From a virus, in the IMG/VR virus record IMGVR_UViG_3300007722_000005, positions 28,206-92,205 of that record: DNA of 64,000 nt, one strand, 5' to 3'. Shown in pieces: positions 1 to 28,409 of the stretch. The notes under the pieces were generated by a model. That model searched no databases. It saw only the letters and a program-made list of their open reading frames with translations, and was not told where the DNA came from. Each line of letters begins with the position of its first letter. Position 1 is the stretch's first letter. Position numbers and translations under genes: made by a program.

Positions 1-321
1 GTGATCACGAGTCAACTTTTCGTCGCCGTGCTGTTTTCCACAGTATCCACAGATGTGGAGGTCGCGACGAAATAGGTTCTTGTTGCTGAGTGTTGGAGTG
101 CGATCAATGTACTTGAATTTTGACTTCAAAGCAACGATTGATCCAATTTCAACATGCGAACGTTCACCCGTCATTCTTGACGTACCACCTTGAAACATAA
201 AATCTTCGTCGCCAAATTCCCACGCGACAAGGCCTTTACATTTCAAAGTCACGGCGTCCTGCCAGTTCATCCAGCTATGTGGCTGACCACCTGCATTTAC
301 TGCTAAGATAAGGTTATGCAT
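1..321 (-). CDS. HNH endonuclease (McrA/HNH_5-like), runs off the window edge
   Basis: Own translation MHNLILAVNAGGQP...LFRRDLHICGYCG...LTRDH, i.e. the RD-x-CxYCG...DH HNH motif. Confidence 0.85.
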   Translation of the reverse strand, partial: MHNLILAVNAGGQPHSWMNWQDAVTLKCKGLVAWEFGDEDFMFQGGTSRMTGERSHVEIGSIVALKSKFKYIDRTPTLSNKNLFRRDLHICGYCGKQHGDEKLTRDH

Positions 322-336
322 GTTACACTTCTATAA

Positions 337-597
337 TTAATCGCCGCCTGGGCGGCCGGTAAATTCTTCGTCTGACATTCCACCCCACTCATCAAACCCG
401 AGGTCGATGTCCTTATGTTTGTTATTATATACTGAATAACTATTATTGGCAACAACTTTAATTCTCTCGGGTGGCGTCAACGAAAACCCTTGTATTGCGT
501 TATTTATCAACCAATTGATGTATCCCATGTCGTTTTTGATAACGTGATCAACAGTTTTACCTTTATATTTCCCAAAACTAAGCCGGCGCTTTTTCAT
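337..597 (-). CDS. FGKYKG-motif protein (DUF3820 / exodeoxyribonuclease X C-terminal-like)
   Basis: SFGKYKGKT...YINWL motif. Confidence 0.6.
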   Translation of the reverse strand: MKKRRLSFGKYKGKTVDHVIKNDMGYINWLINNAIQGFSLTPPERIKVVANNSYSVYNNKHKDIDLGFDEWGGMSDEEFTGRPGGD

Positions 598-919
598 TAA
601 TCTCTAACTCCGCTGTTGTCTCGATCCACAACCGTGCACCACAATTAAGTGGTTTGTTTGGACGGTATACAAACTCCGATGGGCCAAGAATCTTGACACC
701 ATACCCCTTAATTGGACCTGCCGACGTTTGTATAGTGACCGGCGGGTCATTCTTTCCGTGTTTCAAATTGCTCATAATAACCTTCTTATCAACGTGTATA
801 CGCTTGATCGAAACGTTATCATGTGCCTTCTCGCGTCTTCTGTTATGAACTTCGCGTATAGACGGTTCTGACACTAATTTGAACGCTTTTCTACGACTAT
901 ATACACGCTTCTCGGCCAT
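578..919 (-). CDS. hypothetical phage protein
   Basis: ORF in a tightly packed operon; KRIHV...KPLNCGARLWIET. Confidence 0.6.
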   Translation of the reverse strand: MAEKRVYSRRKAFKLVSEPSIREVHNRRREKAHDNVSIKRIHVDKKVIMSNLKHGKNDPPVTIQTSAGPIKGYGVKILGPSEFVYRPNKPLNCGARLWIETTAELEINEKAPA

Positions 920-943
920 GGTTGTCGTATTGTTTCCTTATAG

Positions 944-1126
944 TTAGACTCTCGGGTGGGTGATCTTCGCGAACGTTTCGATACCACGAAGACGCTCAAT
1001 TTCATCAGCAGCTTCTTCGAGGATATCTGCAATACGATCTGATTTGCCTTCCTGCACACTTTTGCGGCCGGGAATTTGACGACGGATTTTGGCGCGTACT
1101 CTCAGTCTGGTAATAAGATCGTCCAT
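944..1126 (-). CDS. hypothetical phage protein, paralog of 27400..27600
   Basis: RLRxRAxIRRxIP...DRIxDILEEAAD shared with the paralog. Confidence 0.6.
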   Translation of the reverse strand: MDDLITRLRVRAKIRRQIPGRKSVQEGKSDRIADILEEAADEIERLRGIETFAKITHPRV

Positions 1127-1128
1127 AA

Positions 1129-1572
1129 TTAAATGCTAGGGGCGCCACAATTTGTGCAACCTCCTGCCATACTCCTCTGTTCGTTTTCGCAGCACAGGCC
1201 TTTGTAGTAACCACTCTCGTTGCCATCGTAAATAATTACGTGAGTAGTTATCCGCGCAATTGAAACCATGTGTTTAGTTCCTTTACTTTCCTTGATGTTT
1301 GGGTGAAAGGCAACAACCAAATCTGGCTTCTCGGCCAACATCGCCTTGTTACGAATTGGACCTGCTGCATTTTTGTATTTCTTCCAATCCGCTGGAAATT
1401 TCTTGGCGGGGATTCCATTATGGTCCGCCCAGTTGCGCGACATAATGTCAACGCCGCGGCACTCCCCCTCAATCAGCAGGGTGAAGTTGTTGACTTTGTG
1501 GAGTTCGTCGAGATGCAGCTCGAGATACTCACTATCAATCCAATCTCTATCGCCACACACAAGAACTTTCAT
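1129..1572 (-). CDS. SLOG/YspA family protein (DUF2493)
   Basis: VLVCGDRD, EGECRGVD, ADWKKYKNAAGPIRN motifs. Confidence 0.85.
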   Translation of the reverse strand: MKVLVCGDRDWIDSEYLELHLDELHKVNNFTLLIEGECRGVDIMSRNWADHNGIPAKKFPADWKKYKNAAGPIRNKAMLAEKPDLVVAFHPNIKESKGTKHMVSIARITTHVIIYDGNESGYYKGLCCENEQRSMAGGCTNCGAPSI

Positions 1573-1836
1573 AATTTTAACCTCTCTATAGCCGGGGTTC
1601 TGTTCTATCTGCTAATTCGTCTGTGAGTTTCCTCACCCTCGTCAGGTTTCAATCTGAGTCATAGGTGCACCAACCCGATATCTCGGCGAGTCACGTCATC
1701 GATATCTGTTTGGCTTGCTGCCGCTGATGTCATCGTACAAGCGACTTTCGTCTCCGATGTAGCATTTACAGCTGCTCTTGGCAGCCCCGAACTTCCTCGA
1801 CAACAAGTTGCCGCTAGCAGTCGAGAGGTTAAAATT
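1573..1836 (-). ncRNA. rnpB: RNase P RNA, compact, with reduced S-domain
   Basis: 14-bp terminal P1; P4 halves GAGGAAGUUCGGGG and AACAGAACCCCGGCUA; P2 CUGCUAG/UUAGCAG; GCAAGCCAAA; P18 GUGAG-GAAA-CUCAC followed by AGACGAAU. Confidence 0.9.
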
Positions 1837-2406
1837 TTAAACTCTTTTGGCGCCGTGACCGTCGATAGGTTTGAACGTTTTCTTTTTCATGATCTGTTTA
1901 ACATGATCGTAACTGATTGGGCAATAGTTGTGATTATCGACACCCACATCAATAGATAATGAATTTGGATCGTCTGGTAGATTCCCGTGCGAATGGCCAT
2001 ATAACTGCCACGAACCGTGGTGCGATTTGTTCCACACCTTCATTGCATAGTGCATAAGAATGATAAGCTGCTGACCTTTGCTTTTTGTTTTGTCAGTAAC
2101 TTTTAATTCAAAATAATCCTTGACCCACACAAAATGTTTTGCAACACACGGGTCCATTTTGCTGTCGTGATTGCCACGAACTAAGAACTTGCGGCCGTTC
2201 AATCTTTTGATGACCGCTTCGGCTTCATGGGGGCGAAGAAATGCAAAATCACCAACAAAATAAACTTCGTCATCAAATTGAACATGATCGTTGTGGTTAG
2301 TGATCAATGTCTCGTTCATATTATCAACATTCGCGAATGGCCGATTGCAAAATTTTATTATATTTGCGTGACCGTAATGTTGATCGCTTGTGAACCATAT
2401 TGTCAT
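1837..2406 (-). CDS. calcineurin-like metallophosphoesterase
   Basis: DxH, GD, GNHD and GHSH motifs. Confidence 0.9.
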   Translation of the reverse strand: MTIWFTSDQHYGHANIIKFCNRPFANVDNMNETLITNHNDHVQFDDEVYFVGDFAFLRPHEAEAVIKRLNGRKFLVRGNHDSKMDPCVAKHFVWVKDYFELKVTDKTKSKGQQLIILMHYAMKVWNKSHHGSWQLYGHSHGNLPDDPNSLSIDVGVDNHNYCPISYDHVKQIMKKKTFKPIDGHGAKRV

Positions 2407-2454
2407 TTTTTTTATTCCCTAGCACGTTTGGTTATTTTCCTTGCTTTTACAATG

Positions 2455-2549
2455 TGGTGCCCCCGCCCGGATTCGAACCGAGATCATGCGCCAATCTAGC
2501 GCCAATGCCGAGGTATAAGCTCGGAGTTTTACCGTTAAACTACAGGGGT
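2455..2549 (-). tRNA. tRNA-Ile(UAU) with long variable arm
   Basis: Anticodon arm CCGAG-CUUAUAC-CUCGG, long V-arm hairpin, encoded CCA. Confidence 0.85.
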
Positions 2550-2551
2550 TT

Positions 2552-2626
2552 TGGAGCTCCAGGACAGAGTTGAACTGTCTTTCGCACTTTACCAAAGTGC
2601 AGTAATAACCATTATACTACAGGAGC
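2552..2626 (-). tRNA. tRNA-Thr(GGU)
   Basis: Cloverleaf with encoded CCA. Confidence 0.9.
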
Positions 2627-2703
2627 GTTAATAAGTCCAGCCTAAAACTTTCATCAATTTCGTTTTGACTCTAATGCTGGTGCGTTAATTATCCACATAA
2701 TTT

Positions 2704-2776
2704 TGGCACCCCATGAAGGAATTCAACCTCCGCAATCAAGGGTAGAAACCTCGACGCCGACATCATCGGATGGGGC
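2704..2776 (-). tRNA. tRNA-Arg(UCU), atypical D-arm
   Basis: Acceptor, anticodon and T arms intact; D region CCGAUGAUGUCGG. Confidence 0.75.
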
Positions 2777-2919
2777 ATTGTTAAAAGTTAAAATCCTGTT
2801 ATTTGTACAGCTATAAAAAATATCCTATAGCAACTATAACGAACCACTCTGTCAGTGAAAATTGGTAACACCAACTCGGCAGCTTGAATGCAATATATTC
2901 AAATATTTTGTCAAACATT

Positions 2920-3138
2920 TTAGTAGTGCCTTTCGTTTGGATGAAGTCGCCAAAATAACCGGCTCGCTTTCTCTGGCGCTTTGTGGTAAACATCAAACCA
3001 ATATTCGTGCACAATGTCTAGCTTCTGGTTCTTCTGCTTGTGCCCGATCCAATAGGGGTTCGAATGGCCACGAGGGCGCCACGTTTTTTCGTGGTAATTC
3101 CTGCGTAGTTGCCTGTCGAGGAATCTATACCCCCACAT
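2920..3138 (-). CDS. hypothetical protein
   Basis: ORF on the coding strand between neighbouring genes. Confidence 0.45.
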   Translation of the reverse strand: MWGYRFLDRQLRRNYHEKTWRPRGHSNPYWIGHKQKNQKLDIVHEYWFDVYHKAPEKASRLFWRLHPNERHY

Positions 3139-3279
3139 ATCAGACGTTCAGGTGCTTCTTGAGAGATTCGAGCTCGCGCTGTTTCCGAGCAACATACTTC
3201 TCATTATCAGGGTAAGCTATTTTGAAACGCTCAAGTGCACCTTTACGACGTTCCTGACGACGAATAAAACTATTCTTGA

Positions 3280-3669
3280 TCATTTTAGCTGGTCCTCCAT
3301 CTCATTAAATGCTCGACTAAGTTGTACCGATGCTATCTGAACAAGTTTTGGATCCTTGAATCCAAAATTATCAGGTAGATTTAATGTTATCACGTGTTTG
3401 TCGGCAAGGTCGAATTCGCTCGAAGTTTCCTCGAAATTCTCTTTGTTGACAAACACAACAGCATCGGACCAATGAATCAGAACGTCGTCAGCGTGGATCA
3501 ACGCAAATGTTTTTGTTGACCCTGCTGCACGTGTGTTGAAGTTGAATGGATCGTTTGATAGAATCCAAGCGACGGTCGGGGAGCGTAGCAGTCCAGCTGA
3601 GCACACACAAAGAACCTTTAACGAAGTTCCTTGGTGAGAATTAGTAGAATTGTGTTTTCTGTTATTGAT
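3280..3669 (-). CDS. low-molecular-weight protein tyrosine phosphatase-like; apparent ATC start
   Basis: KVLCVCSAGLLRS CX5R loop; frame open upstream to an ATC preceded by AGGAG. Confidence 0.8.
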   Translation of the reverse strand: MNNRKHNSTNSHQGTSLKVLCVCSAGLLRSPTVAWILSNDPFNFNTRAAGSTKTFALIHADDVLIHWSDAVVFVNKENFEETSSEFDLADKHVITLNLPDNFGFKDPKLVQIASVQLSRAFNEMEDQLK

Positions 3670-3763
3670 GATGAACTCCTTTTTGATGAAGGTTTCGTAA
3701 CTGTTTGAATATGACTATTATACGTTTTTTTTACAAAAGGTCAACAATTTTAAATTTCAAAAG

Positions 3764-3838
3764 TGGAGCAGGTGGCGGGGATCGAACCCGCGACATTCAC
3801 GTTGGCAACGTGGCATTCTTCCGCTGAACTACACCTGC
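3764..3838 (-). tRNA. tRNA-Gly(GCC)
   Basis: Cloverleaf with encoded CCA. Confidence 0.92.
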
Positions 3839-3872
3839 GTTATTACATTTCTTCGTGTGTGCTTACGCTTGT

Positions 3873-3950
3873 TGGTACCCCCGGTCGGATTCGAACCGAC
3901 ACTGTGCAGGTTTTGAATCTGCTGCCTCCTACCAATTGCGCTACGGGGGC
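3873..3950 (-). tRNA. tRNA-Leu(CAA), short variable loop
   Basis: Cloverleaf, 5-nt V-loop, A73. Confidence 0.88.
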
Positions 3951-3962
3951 ATAGTTTTTGAT

Positions 3963-4033
3963 TGGTACCCTGAGTGAGATTCGAACTCACAAAAGCTGGT
4001 TTAGGAAACCTGCTCCCGTCCATTGGTCAGGAT
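3963..4033 (-). tRNA. tRNA-Arg(CCU), truncated D-arm
   Basis: 71 nt; acceptor and T arms intact; loop UUCCUAA. Confidence 0.7.
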
Positions 4034-4034
4034 G

Positions 4035-4427
4035 TTATGTATGTATTATTGCTGAGGCGATATACTTCTGTATCTTAGCAGGTACGTTATGTGCTTTATT
4101 CATTACATCGGTCATTGTGAACTCGCTCGTGATTCCTTCTCGTGCGAAACTATATAGCGTTCCACCTGGGTGCTCAGTAGCGAGTATCTTCAACATACCG
4201 GCATCAGTAGCTGGAGCGTTGACTGCTGTTTTCTTGATCTTTACCGCCTGTGCAATGCCCATTGTATCTCGGAGCATAGACATCACCTCAGAGGGATCAG
4301 CATTGCGCATTACAGACAACACTTTACCGACGAGGACGTTGATGGCCTTATCTTTTCCAGACTTTACTTGCTCAACGGTCTTTTGATTGTCTGCAATGAC
4401 TTGGGTAATTAGTTCTTCTATTTTCAT
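4035..4427 (-). CDS. GatB C-terminal/YqeY-domain protein
   Basis: IEELITQVIADN...KSGKDKAINVLVGKVL...ADPSEV resembles the GatB tail; start moved to MKIEE to avoid overlapping a tRNA. Confidence 0.75.
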   Translation of the reverse strand: MKIEELITQVIADNQKTVEQVKSGKDKAINVLVGKVLSVMRNADPSEVMSMLRDTMGIAQAVKIKKTAVNAPATDAGMLKILATEHPGGTLYSFAREGITSEFTMTDVMNKAHNVPAKIQKYIASAIIHT

Positions 4428-4435
4428 ATGAATTT

Positions 4436-4525
4436 TGGCGGAGAGTAGAGTAGTCGAAACCCATTCCATTCCTGGAACCAACTGTTTTCGAGGCAGTGTC
4501 GTCAATCCCTGACAATTTACTCTCC
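4436..4525 (-). tRNA. tRNA-Ser(CGA)
   Basis: Long V-arm, G73, CCA. Confidence 0.88.
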
Positions 4526-4687
4526 ATTAAGTATTTTAGCGTCTTTCTCGCTGAGAGGAGTGCAACAATCTACCTTCAACTCTTCGTATGGAAGCTTTCT
4601 GAATATACGATCCCAACCTTCACGATAAGCATTGGTCGGTTGTTTCGTTTTCAGTTCGTCGCCAGTGATGTCGTTTTTTGATGTCAT
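4517..4687 (-). CDS. small hypothetical protein (56 aa)
   Basis: Own translation MTSKNDITGDELKTKQPTNAYREGWDRIFRK... Confidence 0.5.
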   Translation of the reverse strand: MTSKNDITGDELKTKQPTNAYREGWDRIFRKLPYEELKVDCCTPLSEKDAKILNGE

Positions 4688-4702
4688 AATCTATTTGTGT
4701 AG

Positions 4703-4778
4703 TGGTAGTGACCGTGGGAGTCGAACCCACCTATTCTTCCTTATGAGGGAAGCACATAAGCCGCTCTGTCAGGTCACT
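4703..4778 (-). tRNA. tRNA-Met(CAU), elongator or Ile2
   Basis: Anticodon arm CUUCC-CUCAUAA-GGAAG. Confidence 0.85.
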
Positions 4779-4783
4779 GCTGT

Positions 4784-4857
4784 TGGTGGTTCCAAGAGGA
4801 ATCGGACCTCTATATTCGCCATGTCAAAGCGACACTCTACCATTGAGTTATGGAACC
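4784..4857 (-). tRNA. tRNA-Val(GAC)
   Basis: Cloverleaf with encoded CCA. Confidence 0.88.
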
Positions 4858-4864
4858 TAATTTA

Positions 4865-4940
4865 TGGGGTGATCGACGAGATTCGAACTCGCGCTATCTG
4901 ATTCACAATCAGAGGTGCTGACCTTTACACTACGACCACC
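4865..4940 (-). tRNA. tRNA-His(GUG)
   Basis: G-1:C73, cloverleaf. Confidence 0.92.
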
Positions 4941-4946
4941 ATTGTT

Positions 4947-5019
4947 TGGTAGCGGCCGAGGGTAACGATCCCTCTCCCATCGCAGGTTATGAGCCTGGAG
5001 TCTACCACTAGAAGCCGCA
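4947..5019 (-). tRNA. tRNA-Met(CAU), initiator-like, atypical D-arm
   Basis: 1:72 mismatch; GGCUCAUAACC; short D-loop. Confidence 0.7.
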
Positions 5020-5041
5020 ATAGTCTTCTTTACTTCAATTC

Positions 5042-5118
5042 TGGTGCGCGGGCAGAGAATCGAACTCTGCAAATCCCACTTGTAAGGAGGGTGGTGTCAC
5101 CAGCTACGCTCCCCGCGC
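5042..5118 (-). tRNA. tRNA-Val(UAC)
   Basis: Cloverleaf with encoded CCA. Confidence 0.85.
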
Positions 5119-5174
5119 TTTGCGTGAAGTTATAAGGTTGTCAAGCCAACCTTCTCAAATCATGAGATGAAAAT

Positions 5175-5251
5175 TGGTCGGAGTACAAGGATTCGAACCT
5201 TGGACCCTCTGCTCCCAAAGCAGATGCGCTGCCAGACTGCGCTACACTCCG
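5175..5251 (-). tRNA. tRNA-Pro(UGG)
   Basis: Canonical cloverleaf, C1-G72. Confidence 0.95.
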
Positions 5252-5256
5252 AAACT

Positions 5257-5330
5257 TGGTGCCCCTTGACGGAATCGAACCGCCGTAAGCTGCTTACAAA
5301 ACAGCCGTAATACCATTATACTAAAGGGGC
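5257..5330 (-). tRNA. tRNA-Thr(UGU)
   Basis: Cloverleaf with encoded CCA. Confidence 0.92.
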
Positions 5331-5402
5331 AAATTATATTAATTACTTTTCTAAGTCAACTACTCGACCGCTGAGCTATCGAGTAATAATTCTATTTATA
5401 GT

Positions 5403-5615
5403 CTACGTTTCTTCCATTCCTGACGCTCCAGAGAGGCTTACACAATTTGGATCCTCTGCAATTACCGCAACAAACCGCATGTGGATGCTTCGCAACGTTG
5501 CTGCAATCGAAAGAGCGTCGCTCAAATCGCTGGCAACGTGGCCTTGTGTTACACTATCAAGCGTTGTCCAATATACTTTATATTCAGCTTTGTTCATATG
5601 TTTTACTTGTGACAC
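5403..5615 (-). CDS. hypothetical protein
   Basis: ORF inside the tRNA array. Confidence 0.55.
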   Translation of the reverse strand: MSQVKHMNKAEYKVYWTTLDSVTQGHVASDLSDALSIAATLRSIHMRFVAVIAEDPNCVSLSGASGMEET

Positions 5616-5840
5616 TATCGTTTAAGCCCGCTCAGGCCCGCACCCTCGAGGTATGTTGACCATATTTGCAAGACTCCTATGTAGCTTTCATAGGCGTAAC
5701 GCCACAAGTAAAACATTCGGCTCAGTACACCGAGAGGTATGATGAGTATCCTTTATGGTGTAGGGGACGTCCAGGCACATCACCGCGGTACACCATTTCA
5801 TCTTCTTTTGTTGCACTAAGGCGAAGAATCTTCAGAAGGT

Positions 5841-5914
5841 AACCTTTTCAACAATGTCTATTATACTACCATTTAAAGAATAGTCAACACTTTTCTTTTT
5901 ATTGTTAATTCGGC
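5841..5914 (-). repeat. 74-bp direct repeat, copy 1, carrying a sigma70 promoter (TTGACT-N17-TATAAT)
   Basis: Identical to 7343..7416 except for 1 nt in the -10 box. Confidence 0.9.
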
Positions 5915-6505
5915 TGTGTACTTCTCTTTAATTCTGTGAAGCTGTCCCGTTGCCCACTCCAAATTCCTGATGTATTGGTGTTGTTCAGAAGTTTGTTGAA
6001 CACCAACAACGGTGTTTAACCGTCGGTCAAAAAACTCTTCTGGCATGTTGTCGTGTGTTATTATAGTTCCTCTTGTAGGGAAGAATTGAACATATCTGCG
6101 CATGAATTCATTCCACTGTTCAATATGTTCAACAGGAGCTGTAAAATTAAATAGTTGAATTTCTGTTGATATCCTGAAACCAAACTGTTTTGCAAGAAGG
6201 AAGCTGAGTCCTGCTTGAACCATATCTTTTTCGACAACGAAAATTTCGTGCCGTGTTGTTTTCATCACCTTTTTGTACCACGCAATTGATTGTGGGAATC
6301 GGCAAAGATGATGGCCATGCAACTTTATAACAGTGTTTCCATTGTTCAAGCGATGAAGTAACCAATATTTTCGAAATACTGATGCAAAATTATCATCGTA
6401 ACGAGGTGCAAACGGCTCATAAATTTTGTTTTGTCGTTTGCACGAATGAAAAATAGCGCTACCATCTGTGCGGCGGTGGCTGTAAATTATTACTGGGTTT
6501 TTCAT
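5873..6505 (-). CDS. sulfotransferase-like P-loop protein (putative)
   Basis: IIYSHRRTDGSA..EPF..VIKLH pattern; preceded by TATAAATA at 6529-6536. Confidence 0.5.
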   Translation of the reverse strand: MKNPVIIYSHRRTDGSAIFHSCKRQNKIYEPFAPRYDDNFASVFRKYWLLHRLNNGNTVIKLHGHHLCRFPQSIAWYKKVMKTTRHEIFVVEKDMVQAGLSFLLAKQFGFRISTEIQLFNFTAPVEHIEQWNEFMRRYVQFFPTRGTIITHDNMPEEFFDRRLNTVVGVQQTSEQHQYIRNLEWATGQLHRIKEKYTAELTIKRKVLTIL

Positions 6506-6537
6506 AACACATCCTTTTTGAGATGTATTATTTATAA

Positions 6538-6614
6538 TGGTGCGAGTCATGGGAGTCGAACCCACACTGACCAGGTTTTAAATCTGGCGCCTCTTCCAAT
6601 TGGGCTACACTCGC
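6538..6614 (-). tRNA. tRNA-Leu(UAA), short variable loop
   Basis: Cloverleaf with encoded CCA. Confidence 0.88.
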
Positions 6615-6620
6615 GAAACT

Positions 6621-6695
6621 TGGAGCCCTGTGACAGATTCGAGCTGTCCTCTGAACTTTACGAAAGTTCTGTGTCGCCGTCTACACTTACGGGGC
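6621..6695 (-). tRNA. tRNA-Thr(CGU)
   Basis: Cloverleaf with encoded CCA. Confidence 0.85.
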
Positions 6696-6701
6696 AAAAC
6701 T

Positions 6702-6777
6702 TGGTGCGTCCCACAGGAATCGAACCTGTTTCAATGGCTCTTCAAACCACCGCTATGACCACATCAGCTAGAGACGC
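6702..6777 (-). tRNA. tRNA-Phe(GAA)
   Basis: Cloverleaf with encoded CCA. Confidence 0.9.
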
Positions 6778-6813
6778 AAATATCTCCGTTACACTATTTG
6801 TAGCTATTAAATT

Positions 6814-6887
6814 TGGAGACTCGAGACAGAGTTGAACTGTCATCTTCGGGTTTGCAATCCGAGGCACGGCCGTTATACCACCGAGTC
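6814..6887 (-). tRNA. tRNA-Cys(GCA)
   Basis: Cloverleaf, U73. Confidence 0.9.
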
Positions 6888-6893
6888 ATTGTT

Positions 6894-6970
6894 TGGTGCG
6901 CGAGGTGGGACTCGAACCCACAGAACCTACCCTCTCAAGATAGTATGTTTACCAATTTCATCACAAGCGC
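6894..6970 (-). tRNA. tRNA-Leu(GAG), short variable loop
   Basis: Cloverleaf with encoded CCA. Confidence 0.85.
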
Positions 6971-6979
6971 GTTGTTAGT

Positions 6980-7059
6980 TGGTGGAGTGAAAGAGAGTCG
7001 AACTCTAAGGCTACTAGTATGAGCGACCGCAAGGTCGCCGCCGCGATCCGAACCACCCC
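6980..7059 (-). ncRNA. Ala-acceptor tRNA-like RNA resembling the tmRNA tRNA-like domain
   Basis: G3-U70, A73, CCA and T-arm present; no D-stem; internal hairpin GCGACC-UUGC-GGUCGC. Confidence 0.6.
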
Positions 7060-7064
7060 GTATT

Positions 7065-7137
7065 TGGTACCCCATGAAGGAATTTAACCCTCGCAACTGA
7101 GCTTCGAAGGCTCTGCGCCGACATCATCGGATGGGAT
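7065..7137 (-). tRNA. tRNA-Arg(UCG), atypical D-arm
   Basis: Same CCGAUGAUGUCGG D region as 2704..2776. Confidence 0.72.
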
Positions 7138-7140
7138 ATT

Positions 7141-7212
7141 TGGCAACGGTGCACGGAGTCAAACCGTGTTGTATTTCCTTCAGAGGGAAAACCAGCTTCA
7201 AGCTTCACCGCA
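7141..7212 (-). tRNA. tRNA-Gln(CUG), short D-loop
   Basis: UUUCC-CUCUGAA-GGAAA; G73. Confidence 0.72.
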
Positions 7213-7220
7213 ATTGTTCT

Positions 7221-7297
7221 TGGTGCCCTAGAGGGGACTCGAACCCCTAAAATCTACATTCTAAGTGTAGCACGTATGCCAATTCCGTCACCAGGGC
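7221..7297 (-). tRNA. tRNA-Leu(UAG), short variable loop
   Basis: Cloverleaf with encoded CCA. Confidence 0.9.
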
Positions 7298-7342
7298 AAT
7301 ATTATTTAGATGTTATTAGTGTTGGTGTTTCCACGTTCACTC

Positions 7343-7416
7343 AACCTTTTCAACAATGTCTATTGTACTACCATTTAAAGAATAGTCAACACTTTTCTTT
7401 TTATTGTTAATTCGGC
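7343..7416 (-). repeat. 74-bp direct repeat, copy 2, with promoter (TTGACT-N17-TACAAT)
   Basis: Matches 5841..5914. Confidence 0.9.
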
Positions 7417-7437
7417 CTTGCGGCTCTCGCGTTGTAC

Positions 7438-7514
7438 TGGTGGGGGTAGAGGGATTCGAACCCACAATGACCCAGATTCAAAGTCTGGTACGCTTCCAGT
7501 CGCGTGTTACCCCT
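7438..7514 (-). tRNA. tRNA-Gln(UUG)
   Basis: CCAGA-CUUUGAA-UCUGG. Confidence 0.85.
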
Positions 7515-7520
7515 ATTGTT

Positions 7521-7594
7521 TGGTACTCCGGGAAGGAATCAAACCTTCGTGGGCCCCTTATCAAGAGGCTATCTTATCATTAGATGACCGGAGC
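7521..7594 (-). tRNA. tRNA-Ile(GAU)
   Basis: Cloverleaf with encoded CCA. Confidence 0.85.
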
Positions 7595-7600
7595 ATATTT

Positions 7601-7690
7601 TGGCGGAAAGCAGAGCGATCGAAGCCCAAACCCTTTCAGGTTCCAACCGATTAGCAATCGGCGCCGCACTCCATGCGCAATTTACTTTCC
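7601..7690 (-). tRNA. tRNA-Ser(GCU)
   Basis: Long V-arm, G73. Confidence 0.88.
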
Positions 7691-7695
7691 AAATA

Positions 7696-7771
7696 TGGTC
7701 TTTCAGGTGAGACTCGAACTCACGAAATCTTCGCCCCAAACGAAGTGGTATAGCCGCTAACCGACTGAAAG
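7696..7771 (-). tRNA. tRNA-Pro(UGG), second copy
   Basis: CUUCG-UUUGGGG-CGAAG. Confidence 0.88.
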
Positions 7772-7940
7772 ATATTCATTCCGTGTTTTCTATAGCACGG
7801 AGTATAACTTACCGGAGCCCATATAACCGTCATCAAGTGACTCGGTCTTATGAACTCCGACGTAGATTTTATTATTCACGAGTTAGTGATTTGATAGAGG
7901 CAATATTTCATGCCTCTATCGATAATAGATCTACTATGTG

Positions 7941-8012
7941 CTCCATCTCCTGGGATCGAACCAGGGACCTAGCGATTAACAGTCGCTTGCACTACCGCTG
8001 TGCTAAGATGGA
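7941..8012 (-). tRNA. tRNA-Asn(GUU), no encoded CCA
   Basis: U1-A72, canonical cloverleaf. Confidence 0.9.
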
Positions 8013-8018
8013 ATAACT

Positions 8019-8113
8019 TGGCTCCGCAGAGAGGCTTCGAACCTCTATATTGCGCCTTTCGGCCTTTACGTCTCATTAACAGTGAGGTCTCTTACCAATT
8101 AGAGTACCGCGGA
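8019..8113 (-). tRNA. tRNA-Asn(GUU) with long variable arm
   Basis: U1-A72, CUGUUAA loop, about 24-nt V region with a GCC-GAAA-GGC hairpin. Confidence 0.82.
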
Positions 8114-8164
8114 ATAAATCTTTATAATTCATATATCTCGTTGGAAATACATCAATTATAACGA

Positions 8165-8243
8165 TGGTGGGAGCGCCGGGATTCGAACCCGAATCTATCA
8201 GATTAAAAGTCTGTTGTGTTAAATCCGTTGACACCACACTCCC
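8165..8243 (-). tRNA. tRNA-Lys(UUU)
   Basis: Cloverleaf with encoded CCA. Confidence 0.88.
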
Positions 8244-8313
8244 ATTTGTTTACTACGTTTACCATCTTTCGATTTTCGTTTCATATCAAGATCCTTTTTT
8301 GATAAATATTAAC

Positions 8314-8472
8314 ATGCAAAAACTACAAAATTTTAAAGCCTTCTTTCAGCGCAATAAAAAGCAGGCTGAAGCCGAACCCCACACTGGCCCCGATCGTCGG
8401 AAAGGACCACGTCGCACTGTGACGAAGATTAAAACAAACTATACCGCGTGGCATGATCGCCGTGCTGCATAA
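8314..8472 (+). CDS. small basic protein (52 aa), on the strand opposite the array
   Basis: MQKLQNF...GPDRRKGPRR...HDRRAA; fills a tRNA-free gap; ATAAATA upstream. Confidence 0.5.
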   Translation: MQKLQNFKAFFQRNKKQAEAEPHTGPDRRKGPRRTVTKIKTNYTAWHDRRAA

Positions 8473-8475
8473 TGC

Positions 8476-8556
8476 CAAGAGTGTCCTAGGCCACTAGACG
8501 ATCTCGCACACGCCAGTAGCGTGGGTCGAGTGGGATTTGAACCCACGTCTCTCTTG
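8476..8556 (-). ncRNA. circularly permuted tRNA-like module (YrlA/Y-RNA-like), copy A
   Basis: Order T-arm, loop-closed acceptor-like stem, D-arm; ends pair CAAGAG/CUCUUG. Confidence 0.55.
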
Positions 8557-8559
8557 TTC

Positions 8560-8635
8560 TGGCGCCGAGGACGGGGATTGAACCCGCCTGAGAATGATCG
8601 ACAGTCATCCTGTATCCCCAGATAGCTACCTCGGC
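8560..8635 (-). tRNA. tRNA-Asp(GUC)
   Basis: Cloverleaf, G73. Confidence 0.85.
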
Positions 8636-8666
8636 AAATATGGAGTTGCGTAAACGCAACATTGTT

Positions 8667-8794
8667 TGGGACGCGATGGTGAGGTTTTCACTCACGACGA
8701 TTTACAAGATCGCTATCAGCTTTACCCCTCATGGTTGTAACCCCACTACTCATAAAGCATTCCTGTGGACTCGGTCACCACAGCTTCACCGCGT
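8667..8794 (-). ncRNA. 8/5-type oversized tRNA-like RNA ending in CCA
   Basis: 8-bp acceptor, 6-bp D-stem, 6-bp stem closing a 28-nt loop, V-arm, 5-bp T-stem. Confidence 0.55.
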
Positions 8795-8795
8795 T

Positions 8796-8869
8796 TGGAG
8801 CACCTGCGCGGATTCGAACCGCGTTCAATAGTTTGGAAAACTATGTCCTCTCCCAGGAGCGACAGATGC
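8796..8869 (-). tRNA. tRNA-Gly(UCC)
   Basis: Cloverleaf, U73. Confidence 0.85.
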
Positions 8870-8903
8870 ATTAGTTGAATGTCGACTATTTATAATATTG
8901 TTT

Positions 8904-8978
8904 TGGCGGCCCTGCACGGAATCGAACCGCGTTGGCTGGTTTTGGAGACCAGTGCATCACCTTTCATGCTTCAGGGAC
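8904..8978 (-). tRNA. tRNA-Trp(CCA)
   Basis: CUGGU-CUCCAAA-ACCAG. Confidence 0.9.
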
Positions 8979-9146
8979 ATAATTTAATTTGAGCTAAGAC
9001 AAAAAGGACTCGAACCTTCGCTTTCGCCAGAACCAGTTGTGCACCTACGTCTATAAACGTTTCCACAACCTTCTCAGCAACATGCAAACCCTACATTATA
9101 TCAAATTCACACAACAATTATAGTTGCAAGTGTGAACCTCAAAACT

Positions 9147-9230
9147 TGGTGGTTGTGGTAGGATTCGAACCTACTCAGCTAGTGGGCCACTGATTTACAG
9201 TCAGCTTATCTCTCCAAGGAATGCACAACC
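9147..9230 (-). tRNA. tRNA-Tyr(GUA)
   Basis: Long V-arm, CUGUAAA loop. Confidence 0.88.
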
Positions 9231-9247
9231 ATTGTAATACGAAATCT

Positions 9248-9321
9248 TGGTGGTTCTAGAAGGTAACGATCCTTCGTCGCACGATTATCAGTCGTGTGCT
9301 CTACCTTTGAGCTACAGAACC
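9248..9321 (-). tRNA. tRNA-Ile(GAU), second copy
   Basis: Cloverleaf with encoded CCA. Confidence 0.9.
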
Positions 9322-9331
9322 TAAAAGGCGG

Positions 9332-9393
9332 GAGTGTCCTACCACTATACGATTACCCTCACGAGGGTAAGTGGAAATCGAATCCACGTCTCT
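9332..9393 (-). ncRNA. circularly permuted tRNA-like module (YrlA/Y-RNA-like), copy B
   Basis: T-arm GUGGA-UUCGAUU-UCCAC, hairpin UUACCCU-CGUG-AGGGUAA, then D-arm GUAUAGUGGUAGGAC. Confidence 0.6.
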
Positions 9394-9402
9394 TTCTTTA
9401 CT

Positions 9403-9477
9403 TGGCGGTCCCAAGGGGTAACGATCCCCTTCTTCGACAGTGACAGTGTCGTGTGCGTCCATGAACACTTTGGAACC
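9403..9477 (-). tRNA. tRNA-Asp(GUC), second copy
   Basis: Cloverleaf, G73. Confidence 0.88.
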
Positions 9478-9489
9478 GAATGCAATAAC

Positions 9490-9581
9490 TGGCGGAGAGC
9501 AGAGGAGTCGAACCCCATCCCCTTTCGGGGAACCTAGTTTTCAAGGCTAGTCGACACACCAACGCGTCTGCATTACTCTCC
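9490..9581 (-). tRNA. tRNA-Ser(UGA)
   Basis: Long V-arm, G73. Confidence 0.88.
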
Positions 9582-9589
9582 ATTAATAC

Positions 9590-9664
9590 TGGTGCACCCG
9601 AGGAGAATCGAACTCCCTTTCGCAGATTGAAAGTCTGCTGTCCTAACCGGTAGACGACGGATGC
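9590..9664 (-). tRNA. tRNA-Glu(UUC)
   Basis: Canonical cloverleaf. Confidence 0.93.
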
Positions 9665-9745
9665 ATAATTCGCAGGCGTATTCCGGAGCAGCTCACGCAA
9701 GGTGAGTGCCCATTGAGTCATCAACTCAACTTACGCCATTGATCT

Positions 9746-9820
9746 TGGTGGGCCCTGTGGGATTTTAACCCACATCGTCTCGGGTAAGAGCCGAGTGTAA
9801 TAACGTTATACGAAAGACCC
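9746..9820 (-). tRNA. tRNA-Lys(CUU)
   Basis: Cloverleaf with a deviant T-loop. Confidence 0.8.
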
Positions 9821-9826
9821 ATAATT

Positions 9827-9900
9827 TGGAGCGGGATAGGAGAATCGAACTCCTTTAACTAGTTTGGAAGACTAGGACACAACCAATATGCCAATCCCGC
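9827..9900 (-). tRNA. tRNA-Gly(UCC), second copy
   Basis: Canonical cloverleaf. Confidence 0.92.
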
Positions 9901-9906
9901 GTTGTT

Positions 9907-9981
9907 TGGTGGAGGCCGAGGAAATCGAATCCTTCTAGTCAGAATCCTTGCAAAGGATACCCGTAACCCATTACTGCCCCC
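9907..9981 (-). tRNA. tRNA-Ala(UGC), reduced D-arm
   Basis: G3-U70; AUCCU-UUGCA-AGGAU arm; short D region. Confidence 0.78.
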
Positions 9982-10195
9982 AATGTTCTTAATTAACAGC
10001 AATTTTGCAACTATCCAAAAATGCTTTCAATTAAGGAGTAGGCCGTCCCCACTCAGATCTCTTTTACTCTTCCTGTTTACGCCAGGAATTTCATCCAGAC
10101 CGCCGCCAAATTGGAGATGTTTAAAGTGCCTCCGCGAATCGCGTTTCCGTACACTTTACTTCAAAAGAACGATTACTTCTTTGTTACTAGATTGA

Positions 10196-10226
10196 CTATT
10201 ATCAACATTTTAAAACAAAAGTCAAC
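10196..10226 (-). promoter_or_regulatory. sigma70-like promoter for the tRNA array
   Basis: TTGACT-N16-GATAAT. Confidence 0.55.
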
Positions 10227-10253
10227 AGTTATTTTAAATCCTTGATTCTACAA

Positions 10254-10288
10254 CAAAAAACCCCAAGTCTTTCGATCTTGGGGTTCTT
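10254..10288 (-). terminator. intrinsic terminator (attenuator)
   Basis: AACCCCAAG-AUCGAAAGA-CUUGGGGUU followed by a U-run. Confidence 0.85.
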
Positions 10289-10311
10289 TTTAAAAGAGAT
10301 CTGATACTACC

Positions 10312-10422
10312 TTATCTCATAAGAACCCCGATCGCTTCATCACTACGGCCAAACCATGAGCAAATCCCTGGCGCATTATATGCGGCGGGTTGGCTTAATG
10401 TTTGTGGTAGTGTTTTATTCAT
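10312..10422 (-). CDS. leaderless 36-aa attenuator leader peptide
   Basis: MNKTLPQTLSQPAAYNAPGICSWFGRSDEAIGVLMR; ATG 7 nt after TATAAT; 3' end complementary to the terminator arm. Confidence 0.7.
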   Translation of the reverse strand: MNKTLPQTLSQPAAYNAPGICSWFGRSDEAIGVLMR

Positions 10423-10429
10423 ATGAAGC

Positions 10430-10458
10430 ATTATAGTACCTTTTGAAAGAAAAGTCAA
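10430..10458 (-). promoter_or_regulatory. near-consensus sigma70 promoter
   Basis: TTGACT-N17-TATAAT. Confidence 0.85.
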
Positions 10459-10514
10459 CATCTATATTATATATATGTAAAAGTTAATTTTTGACCACTT
10501 TTGAACAAAAATAT

Positions 10515-10967
10515 TTAAAAGGTTTGATATTCGTCGGAAAACCACTTCTTGAAGTCGCCGTATAAATGTGCTTCAAGGTGTTCCGCTTCTTTTTCCCAGG
10601 GGCGATCGCGGTAATGGTCATCTTCCTGCAGCGACACACTAACACGGCGAGCTTTCCACATTGTGTGACATATTGATAATTCGCGCTTCGCATATTGTTT
10701 GACGTGGACCATCTCGTGGGACAACGCCAATATGGGATCAATCGTCTTCTTGTTAATGTTAATTGTAAACTTTCGTGGCTTATCGTTAATAATCGACGAC
10801 GGGTAGCACTCTGCATAACAGCCATTTTCGATTGCTCGGAAGTTAATGGTCACCGTTAGTTTACGAGAAAGATTCACATGCATCAATTGTCCGGAATAGA
10901 ATTTGATTGCTTCACCAACTTCAAATTTCAACTTATCATCACGACAGTTGCGGATTATGAACTTCAT
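10515..10967 (-). CDS. zincin metallopeptidase-like protein
   Basis: HEMVHVKQ (HExxH) and PWEKEA motifs. Confidence 0.8.
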   Translation of the reverse strand: MKFIIRNCRDDKLKFEVGEAIKFYSGQLMHVNLSRKLTVTINFRAIENGCYAECYPSSIINDKPRKFTININKKTIDPILALSHEMVHVKQYAKRELSICHTMWKARRVSVSLQEDDHYRDRPWEKEAEHLEAHLYGDFKKWFSDEYQTF

Positions 10968-27638: not shown

Positions 27639-27713
27639 TGGCGCTCCCGGTGGGAATCGAACCCACTGTCTCGGTTTTAGAGACCGCTGCCGCAACCAAT
27701 TGGCTTCAGGAGC
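27639..27713 (-). tRNA. amber suppressor tRNA (CUA), Trp-like body
   Basis: CGGU-CUCUAAA-ACCG arm, G73, canonical D and T arms, encoded CCA. Confidence 0.9.
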
Positions 27714-27719
27714 AAATAT

Positions 27720-28409
27720 TTATATCAACTTCCAGTTTGAAATTGGCATTAAACCATAACTTTTAGCTTCAACAGTTTTATATGTAAACACGATGTCCCC
27801 AGCGAGGCAAATTCTCATGTTTTCTGGCCCTATCTTTGAGGGAATGCTGTTCTCACGAAGTGTATATTCATTTTCCTCACCAGACCCCGTAAAATGATCA
27901 ACAGACGCGGGAAACACAAGCAACATTCCTTCGGTTGGTAGTATGCTAAAGTTGTGGGCGTTGAACTCATTCCACTCGGTTGCGTTCTGTGAATATATGT
28001 TTTTGTAGAATTGATTGGGACGAGGAGAAATAAAACAGATTCTATCCGGTGTAAATGATGTTGGAATGTTGACGTAATAAACAAACGACAACTGAGCGTC
28101 AGCGTGGTTGTGCACAGGGACACTCCAATCCTTCGTTATCATCAGCCACGACTTAACTATGTATAGGTTTTGAAATTCAGGATCGAGGCCGCACTCTTTT
28201 ATATGGTCCTTAACCGCACGACCTATGAAAGCATACAGATCAGCAAAAGCAACACCGTGTTGAAGATCGTTGTGACCCGTGTTTTCGTTAGATTGGAGAT
28301 TGTCGTTGCTGTGTTGAGGTAACACGTTAAAGAATGCTGGCTTAAATTCAGCAAATCGTGGATATACACTCTCCGTTATAAGAGTGGGAAACAGTCTGTG
28401 CTTTTTCAT
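27720..28409 (-). CDS. 2OG-Fe(II) oxygenase (TIGR02466-like)
   Basis: LFPT, HNH, SFVYYV, FPASVDH, RICLA. Confidence 0.82.
   Translation of the reverse strand: MKKHRLFPTLITESVYPRFAEFKPAFFNVLPQHSNDNLQSNENTGHNDLQHGVAFADLYAFIGRAVKDHIKECGLDPEFQNLYIVKSWLMITKDWSVPVHNHADAQLSFVYYVNIPTSFTPDRICFISPRPNQFYKNIYSQNATEWNEFNAHNFSILPTEGMLLVFPASVDHFTGSGEENEYTLRENSIPSKIGPENMRICLAGDIVFTYKTVEAKSYGLMPISNWKLI

Follow-up and report, generated by a model that had tools for sequence, protein, structure and literature searches.

The window analysed here, a 64,000-nucleotide (nt) stretch of viral DNA (positions 28,206 to 92,205 of IMG/VR record IMGVR_UViG_3300007722_000005), carries a long array of transfer RNA (tRNA) genes headed by a short element that comprises a promoter, a small open reading frame (ORF) and an intrinsic terminator. 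We think it probable that this element is a transcription attenuator operated by the ribosome, with a leader that samples all of the amino acids and does not repeat a single one. Several properties of the element and its relatives fit a ribosome-coupled attenuator that senses decoding in general: the reading frame is kept, its amino acid diversity is high, the end of the ORF and the terminator form a covarying helix, the spacing between them is fixed, and the element is linked to tRNA arrays. The source record is 92 kb long with a completeness estimate of about one half, and all leader and array coordinates are on the minus strand (Table 1).

The leader ORF can be read from either of two in-frame start codons. 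The sequence-only reading had described a leaderless ORF of 36 codons, whose ATG (10422-10420) lies 7 nt past the -10 box of a TTGACT-N17-TATAAT promoter (P1) and which contains 19 amino acids, His alone being missing; promoter, spacing and frame are all present as described, P1 is the top sigma-70 match (11/12) in the 10 kb scanned, and the leaderless layout recurs in several lineages. The homologous and ancestral start is, however, probably the ATG at 10431, which overlaps the P1 -10 box, is preceded by AAGG, and adds Met-Leu-His to give 39 codons and all 20 amino acids, because the N-terminus read from there (MLHMNKTLPQ) aligns with those of the relatives L087 (MLHISKHFPQ) and L092 (MLHLPQ). 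The leaderless 36-codon form would then be limited to P1 transcripts, with P1 embedded in an older leader. We infer that the ORF is translated. A possible weak promoter further upstream, P0, has its -10 box 34 nt from ATG 10431, such that its transcript would carry the AAGG Shine-Dalgarno (SD) motif, and promoter-like sites at the equivalent position lie 30–34 nt before an SD-led start codon in L082, L083, L113, L115 and L140. Taking the window by itself, the probability of finding 19 different residues in 36 is about 0.026 and that of 20 in 39 about 0.005, and the approximately 30 codons 5′ of strand A (see below) hold 17 different amino acids.

The stop codon is followed by a terminator whose stem, CCCCAAG/CUUGGGG, is extended by A/U pairs and bears a bulged A; a GAAA tetraloop, closed by a UC/GA step, caps it, and a U6 tract follows. 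The complementarity of nine nucleotides previously pointed out between the end of the ORF and the 5′ side of this terminator is an exact match: GGGGTTCTT (10329-10321, strand A) is the perfect complement of AAGAACCCC (10288-10280, strand B), the latter forming the 5′ flank and arm of the terminator, and a 9-nt complement anchored on the CCCC arises in only 22 of 20,000 dinucleotide shuffles of the window element. Because the A:B antiterminator and the terminator both use the CCCC, the two helices are mutually exclusive. Folding of both conformers, which the sequence-only reading had proposed, finds them near-isoenergetic in the window, with best folds of -57.8 kcal/mol for the antiterminator and -58.1 for the terminator (0.3 apart), and over the family as a whole they differ by about -7 to +5; the A..B hairpin amounts to -16.9 kcal/mol compared to -19.9 for the terminator. 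When the nascent transcript is folded only as far as the 5′ arm of the terminator, the minimum free energy (MFE) structure contains A:B in the window and in 32 of the 39 elements of the family under a strict test, and those that fail it have offset or interrupted A:B helices, such as GGGUCCUGGAAG with CUUCCAGGACCC. The body of the ORF 5′ of strand A is also more structured than its shuffles (family mean z -2.5, with 25 of 39 below -2), and this hairpin, as modelled, may serve as an RNA polymerase pause or synchronising structure.

The family was assembled from the terminator. An exact search of viral contigs returned three loci with the full window layout, and a pattern with two free stem positions returned 22 viral and 38 metagenome loci; after removal of duplicates and three unrelated hits there are 39 distinct elements, window included. 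The hairpin of L082-L084 is identical to that of the window. All 39 elements have an open frame of 29–46 codons, whereas the other two forward frames average 2.4 and 2.9 stops, and in all 39 the stop codon lies 25–38 nt before the CCCC of the terminator. The start signals are kept, every element having an SD motif or a leaderless ATG; mostly they are AGGA, GGAG or AAGG at the proper distance, frequently with TTG or GTG start codons, and consensus promoters (11–12 of 12) are found immediately 5′ of leader ORFs; eight elements, from four or five lineages, have an 11–12/12 promoter whose -10 box ends 6–7 nt before the ATG, which is the leaderless layout. Strand A lies 0–17 nt (class I) or 12–25 nt (class II) upstream of the stop codon. 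The class II elements (L100, L108, L117, L120, L123, L125, L131, L133, L135 and L136) have a GGGGUCCy strand A followed by GGACC before the stop, and their ORFs are longer, at 42–46 codons, with about 30 codons still upstream of A. As the sequence-only reading had proposed looking for, ORF and antiterminator recur ahead of tRNA arrays: of the 28 elements for which 400 nt or more of downstream sequence are available, 25 are followed within 1.2 kb by a tRNA on the same strand, usually 100–360 nt away, and none by one on the opposite strand. The genes upstream vary between lineages while the arrays follow, indicating that the module travels with the array.

The leaders are nearly complete in their amino acids. 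Nineteen of them contain all 20, a further 14 contain 19, and the remaining six contain 18, with a mean of 19.3 different residues in 39 codons where about 16 are expected from the phage proteome (Fisher's combined p 4e-14 over 18 clusters, themselves related, at 50% identity, each represented by its worst member). The diversity is mostly in the approximately 30 codons 5′ of A (17.95 different residues, about 15.5 expected). It is specific to one frame and therefore does not simply follow from base composition or from the hairpins: 15.7–17.0 different residues are found in the other five reading frames, all of which the ORF frame strictly exceeds in 33 of 39 elements. There is no run of any codon, with 18–20 different residues in 29–46 codons, in agreement with the earlier proposal of a general and not a single-amino-acid sensor. 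Among close variants the rare residues relocate and do not disappear; for example, the single Cys moves between L110/L130 and L127/L132. We also note that the leader ORFs of these four loci combine, in mosaic fashion, one of two N-terminal variants with one of two central variants, which we read as a sign of recombination within the leader.

The peptide sequence itself is not under purifying selection, and it is the open frame that is kept, since codon changes between close pairs are 130 non-synonymous and 37 synonymous and fall evenly over the three codon positions (67:76:81) with no third-position excess. This bears on whether the element is a self-contained small gene, having a promoter, a terminator and a functional peptide of 36–39 residues, which adjoins the array only by gene order and in which A:B tunes the 3′ end or stability of the mRNA. 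Such a gene would account for the dedicated strong promoter, the strong terminator and the further promoter for the tRNAs, and leader peptides that act in trans are known from other systems (PMC7298713). We nonetheless consider it quite improbable, because in addition to the substitution pattern the peptide has no match to any PHROG family, no residue pattern is kept beyond the constraints of the RNA helix, and the order of Cys and Trp changes between lineages; nor would it explain why 18–20 amino acids occur in one frame only, or why the stem of the terminator has a covarying helix as its competitor.

The covariation of that helix was evaluated in an alignment of 32 distinct sequences, re-anchored on the GGGG after plain MAFFT had misplaced A between the two classes. 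In A:B, 84.9% of cells are paired, compared to 73.1% in shuffles, and 56 cells are compensatory compared to 23.7 ± 3.9, a value that none of 500 shuffles reaches and below which all slid controls fall. Both partners vary at six of the 11 pairs, as at pair 6, where UA and CG occur 17:13. The terminator is 96.7% paired across the family, with two covarying pairs. An ordinary terminator that insulates P2, the promoter following it, with the 9-mer and the diverse ORF being chance or leftovers of a duplicated hairpin arm, is hardly credible in the light of these compensatory changes across lineages, the rarity of the 9-mer in shuffles, and the maintenance of ORF, spacing and diversity over 18 clusters, and the comparative data thus already disfavour it. 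What speaks for it comes from L001 and L002, which have the closest homologues of the gene upstream of the leader (47% identity) but neither a small ORF nor a strand A: there the stop of the upstream gene is followed by a plain hairpin (same loop, compensated stem), a TTGACT promoter, a boxA-like sequence and tRNAs. The 3′ arm of that hairpin, CCTGGGGTTCTT, contains the 9-mer of strand A, suggesting that A arose from a hairpin arm.

The GGGGTTCTT motif of L082 and L083 is read in a different frame than in the window and L084, and it is conserved as RNA. This retention of GGGGUUCUU at the nucleotide level across frames, together with the unusual structure of the ORF body, could also be expected of an RNA switch that is set by a protein, a small RNA or a tRNA, or of a small non-coding RNA running from P1 to the terminator in which the open frame is a by-product. 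Both seem decidedly improbable given that the frame is open in every element where the other forward frames have 2–3 stops, that the start signals are kept, that the stop codon is fixed in position relative to A and the terminator, and that the diversity is frame-specific. Rfam likewise has no family that matches the element at threshold, the best being the rimP leader at 22 bits (gathering 47) and the Rev39 5′ untranslated region at 21 (gathering 88), and no T-box riboswitch is matched either at E values up to 1 in 9700-10700 or at the gathering score in 1-10500.

A ribosome-coupled attenuator would operate as follows. Transcripts would start at P1 (leaderless, ATG 10422) or further upstream (ATG 10431 with AAGG) and carry an ORF of 36 or 39 codons, and as the polymerase advances strand A, in the final codons, could pair with strand B, which is also the 5′ side of the terminator. 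A ribosome that keeps pace to the stop codon would place its footprint on A and not on B, B would pair with the 3′ arm, and the transcript would end at about 10255. If the ribosome lags in the first 30 or so codons, or is not loaded, A:B would form first and hold the CCCC, no terminator would form, and readthrough would continue over P2 and the boxA-like element and reach the tRNA genes. The outcome would be tRNA transcription beyond that from the array's own promoters when decoding is slow. The geometry is compatible with this: in the numbering of the 39-codon frame A occupies nt 103–111, the stop codon 118–120, B 144–152, the 3′ arm 165–171 and the U-tract 172–177, with B beginning 26 nt past the first base of the stop codon. 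A ribosome whose A site holds the stop codon would cover roughly nt 103–132, which includes all of A and none of B and would favour the terminator, and one held with its A site at or before about codon 30 would leave A free to capture B once this is made. The retained gap of 25–38 nt between stop and CCCC appears to fit a need for B to be placed just beyond what a terminating ribosome covers. Ribosome-coupled attenuation, as proposed in the sequence-only reading, is supported by covariation, frame and spacing; we infer that ribosome position chooses the fold, that slow decoding gives readthrough, and what the physiological trigger would be.

The polarity could in principle be the opposite, with untranslated transcripts terminating while A is held elsewhere, by the structured ORF body or, in some lineages, by a 5′ segment or the local GGACC hairpin, and translation freeing A to block the terminator. 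We regard this as unlikely, and equally so its corollary that tRNA transcription would track translation activity and not its failure. In its favour, the full-length MFE structures of L082-L084, L087-L089, L093 and L099 pair A with the first ORF codons and have the terminator formed, the class II GGUCC..GGACC hairpin adjoins A, and in L017, a locus of an independent group described below, the ORF begins with 16 nt that form a perfect helix with the 15 nt past the stop. In the window, however, no competitor for A is predicted and the nascent fold has A:B; A is moreover so near the stop codon that a terminating ribosome covers it, which favours termination after complete translation, and the constant distance from stop to terminator fits this too.

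Several observations weigh against the attenuator or limit it. First, Asp, Glu and Val are confined to the last nine codons of the window ORF, where a stalled ribosome would mask strand A and favour termination, so that the earlier proposal of readthrough upon stalling at almost any codon holds by geometry for about the first 30 codons and not for these three residues. Secondly, the start codon and transcription start site in the window are candidates only, and in L084 and L115 the P1-like promoter and the ATG overlap at the -10 box, such that P1-type transcripts of these two would not be translatable. Thirdly, the array contains further early promoters at 7389, 5887 and 3744 (TTGACy..TAtAAT, minus strand) and T4-type late promoters (TATAAATA) at 8894, 6536 and 5400 (minus strand), so that with P2 and these the switch can only add to tRNA transcription and not gate it alone. 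Fourthly, Ala, Ser and Arg account for nine of the 39 leader codons (a tenth, CCC, is doubtfully read) for which standard tools find no matching tRNA in the array. A local GGUCC..GGACC hairpin in class II could possibly compete with A:B and complicate the polarity. The relatives are homologous and the 18 clusters related, such that the combined statistics overstate independence; the covariation alignment is anchored on the very GGGG that opens strand A, which is a caveat on its counts; and a query of a cultured-phage collection yielded no family member from a cultured phage.

Table 1. Features of the leader element and its surroundings in the window.
Feature	Position	Strand	Details
Gene with HExxH motif, unknown function	10967-10515	minus	150 codons; 5′ of the leader
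P0, possible weak promoter	10466..10495	minus	GTCAAA-N18-TATAAT; match 9/12
P1, promoter	10430..10458	minus	TTGACT-N17-TATAAT; -35 10458-10453, -10 10435-10430; early sigma-70-type family
Leader ORF	10312..10431	minus	39 codons from ATG 10431 or 36 from ATG 10422; stop TAA 10314-10312
Long imperfect hairpin in ORF body	10334..10429	minus	fold z-score -3.7 vs shuffles
Strand A	10321..10329	minus	GGGGUUCUU; codons 35-37 when read as 39 codons; 3′ end 6 nt from the stop
Strand B	10280..10288	minus	AAGAACCCC; pairs with A (antiterminator) or with terminator 3′ arm and U-tract
Intrinsic terminator	10255..10288	minus	CCCCAAG, loop ATCGAAAGA, CTTGGGG, T6; -19.9 kcal/mol
P2, promoter	10225-10198	minus	TTGACT-N16-GATAAT; between terminator and tRNA genes, 30 nt past the terminator
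boxA-like element	10161..10171	minus	CGTTCTTTTGA; downstream of P2, before the tRNAs
tRNA array	2455..9900	minus	29 genes by ARAGORN and one by Rfam

The array is somewhat smaller than the 40 or so tRNAs of the sequence-only reading, standard tools finding 30 canonical genes, one of which (7524-7594, minus strand, 50 bits) is found by Rfam and missed by ARAGORN. The second promoter-like element that had been noticed downstream of the terminator corresponds to P2, and P2-type promoters are present in most of the relatives, with a perfect consensus directly 5′ of the first tRNA in L096. The early promoters at 7389 and 5887 lie in a repeated segment with about 60 nt shared, and no second leader module was found inside the window array. 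The boxA-like element is a partial match to the rrn boxA consensus, which we take to be TGCTCTTTAACAA; sites reading CGTTCTTTAAAAA, CGCTCATTAACAA or TGCTCTTTAAAAA are at the same position in L082-L084, L087-L089, L099, L113, L115, L140 and L001/L002, and suggest rrn-type, Nus-factor antitermination of phage tRNA arrays. We considered whether the leader is written in the codons of the phage's own tRNAs, and dropped the idea, the proportion of Ala, Ser and Arg codons without an ARAGORN tRNA being at about background level; the leader of this phage thus appears to sample amino acids generally and not to mirror its own tRNA set.

Other tRNA-like sequences were seen in these regions. Between P2 and the first ARAGORN tRNA (at about 9907-9990, minus strand) is a tRNA-like sequence with a CCACCA end, a UGC anticodon loop and a very short D-arm, which neither ARAGORN nor Rfam calls. 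A tRNA with a CTA anticodon, of amber-suppressor type, is located far from the array at 27639-27713 (minus strand). In L001 (about 3560-3650) and L002 (about 2350-2440) the promoter and boxA-like site are followed by a structured RNA of about 90 nt with a terminal GGAGGG...CCCTCC pairing and a CCA finish, which may be an unusual tRNA-like gene.

The phage is an uncultured T4-like virus, based on the 56–60% identity of its gp41-type helicase to those of cyanomyoviruses, its canonical T4-type late promoters (TATAAATA), and its clear sigma-70-type family of early promoters (TGTTGACyTTT..TATAAT), nearly all of which are on the minus strand. An upstream ATATATAAT motif was rejected as a T4-type late promoter because those of the phage are canonical. 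The gene 5′ of the leader, a protein of 150 residues, matches only PHROG families of unknown function and no Pfam family.

Loci were also obtained independently of the hairpin, through the upstream protein, and these provide three more groups with ORFs of 33–35 codons and 18–20 different residues ahead of arrays. In two of the groups (L010/L017/L029 and L054/L068/L071) a different terminator is detected after the ORF and before the tRNA array; in the third (L056/L076/L078) the terminator test found none, yet the fold shows a hairpin. Reading of the sequences suggests A:B-type complementarity in these groups. The helix of L017 mentioned above (4851-4970) has counterparts in L010 and L029, and the start codon in these three would be sequestered within a long-range helix. 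A 49-residue open frame used as query found no relative in viral contigs. Among cultured phages, the sole match to a 1.1-kb query was at the level of a tRNA, in Stenotrophomonas phage DLP6, a relative's leader with its first tRNAs matched only tRNA genes, and the terminator found weak hits only. Two candidates were set aside: the hit in phage T5 is a bidirectional terminator that separates ordinary genes and is unrelated, and a hit in a 636-kb uncultured phage does precede tRNAs but has a small ORF that is hydrophobic and not pangrammatic.

We tentatively extend the attenuator to a broader proposal, for which we would put the chances at a little short of even: that a universal gauge of decoding speed is present in many uncultured T4-like phages from lakes and seas, in which a pangram leader has been selected and in which a shortage or cleavage of nearly any tRNA, or slow ribosomes in general, would hold the ribosome back, preserve the antiterminator fold and lead to extra transcription of the array. 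Such a gauge would act as a homeostatic loop for tRNA supply and might in addition counter anticodon nucleases of the host, although the link to nucleases is a guess. The usual explanations for tRNA arrays in phages are codon usage and evasion of host defences that target tRNAs; if the proposal is correct, these phages gauge overall decoding performance and tune the tRNA supply to match. The element would also be the first attenuator known for tRNA genes and the first leader selected for amino acid completeness over repetition, and would widen the principle of attenuation, classically tied to a single amino acid and a single operon, to the tRNA pool and the full set of amino acids. With a length of about 200 nt and sigma-70 signals it should function in laboratory bacteria or in a cell-free system, and could serve as a compact reporter of translation stress. 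A full-text search of the published literature found no account of a leader-peptide attenuator before tRNA genes, or of a pangram leader.

The closest architectural parallels are the enterobacterial attenuators, among them trpL, hisL, pheL and leuL and the multivalent thrL and ilvL. As in these, the phage element has a short leader ORF, an intrinsic terminator, an antiterminator with one strand in common with it, a stop codon positioned such that a terminating ribosome covers the antiterminator strand, and structure within the ORF that is able to cause pausing. Unlike them, it has no run of regulatory codons, with nearly every amino acid used once or twice, and it precedes tRNAs instead of biosynthetic enzymes, is viral, has a promoter past the terminator, and is leaderless in several members; no leader family in Rfam matches it. 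The PeSL (promoter-early stem-loop) cassettes of T4-type phages, reportedly described by Arbiol et al. in 2010 as recombination and expression modules flanking small novel ORFs, resemble the segment at 10288-10198 in having a terminator-like stem-loop followed by an early sigma-70-type promoter, and early-promoter sequences are also repeated within the array; however, they are not known to have a covarying antiterminator or a pangram ORF.

In function, the element is more reminiscent of systems that report translation stress. The bmrCD and Listeria lmo0919 leaders are ribosome-stalling attenuators. The Bacillus subtilis vmlR leader is another, and responds to translation inhibitors (PMC9226507). 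The similarity is that a general slowdown of ribosomes on a short leader ORF disables a terminator and so reports translation stress, but leaders of this kind are very short or have specific stall sites and precede antibiotic-resistance genes, whereas the phage leaders are 29–46 codons long, selected for diversity, and placed before tRNAs. In the trn operon of Anabaena sp. PCC 7120 a long tRNA array is induced under translational stress (PMC8421152, PMC10272220). Control there is exerted by the repressor TrcR and by direct repeats that overlap the promoter, and a leader peptide, attenuation or a terminator is mentioned in neither paper (PMC8421152, PMC10272220); the operon is bacterial and plasmid-borne, unlike the phage element; nevertheless, as an accessory tRNA array whose transcription goes up when translation is impaired, it provides the nearest published physiological logic.

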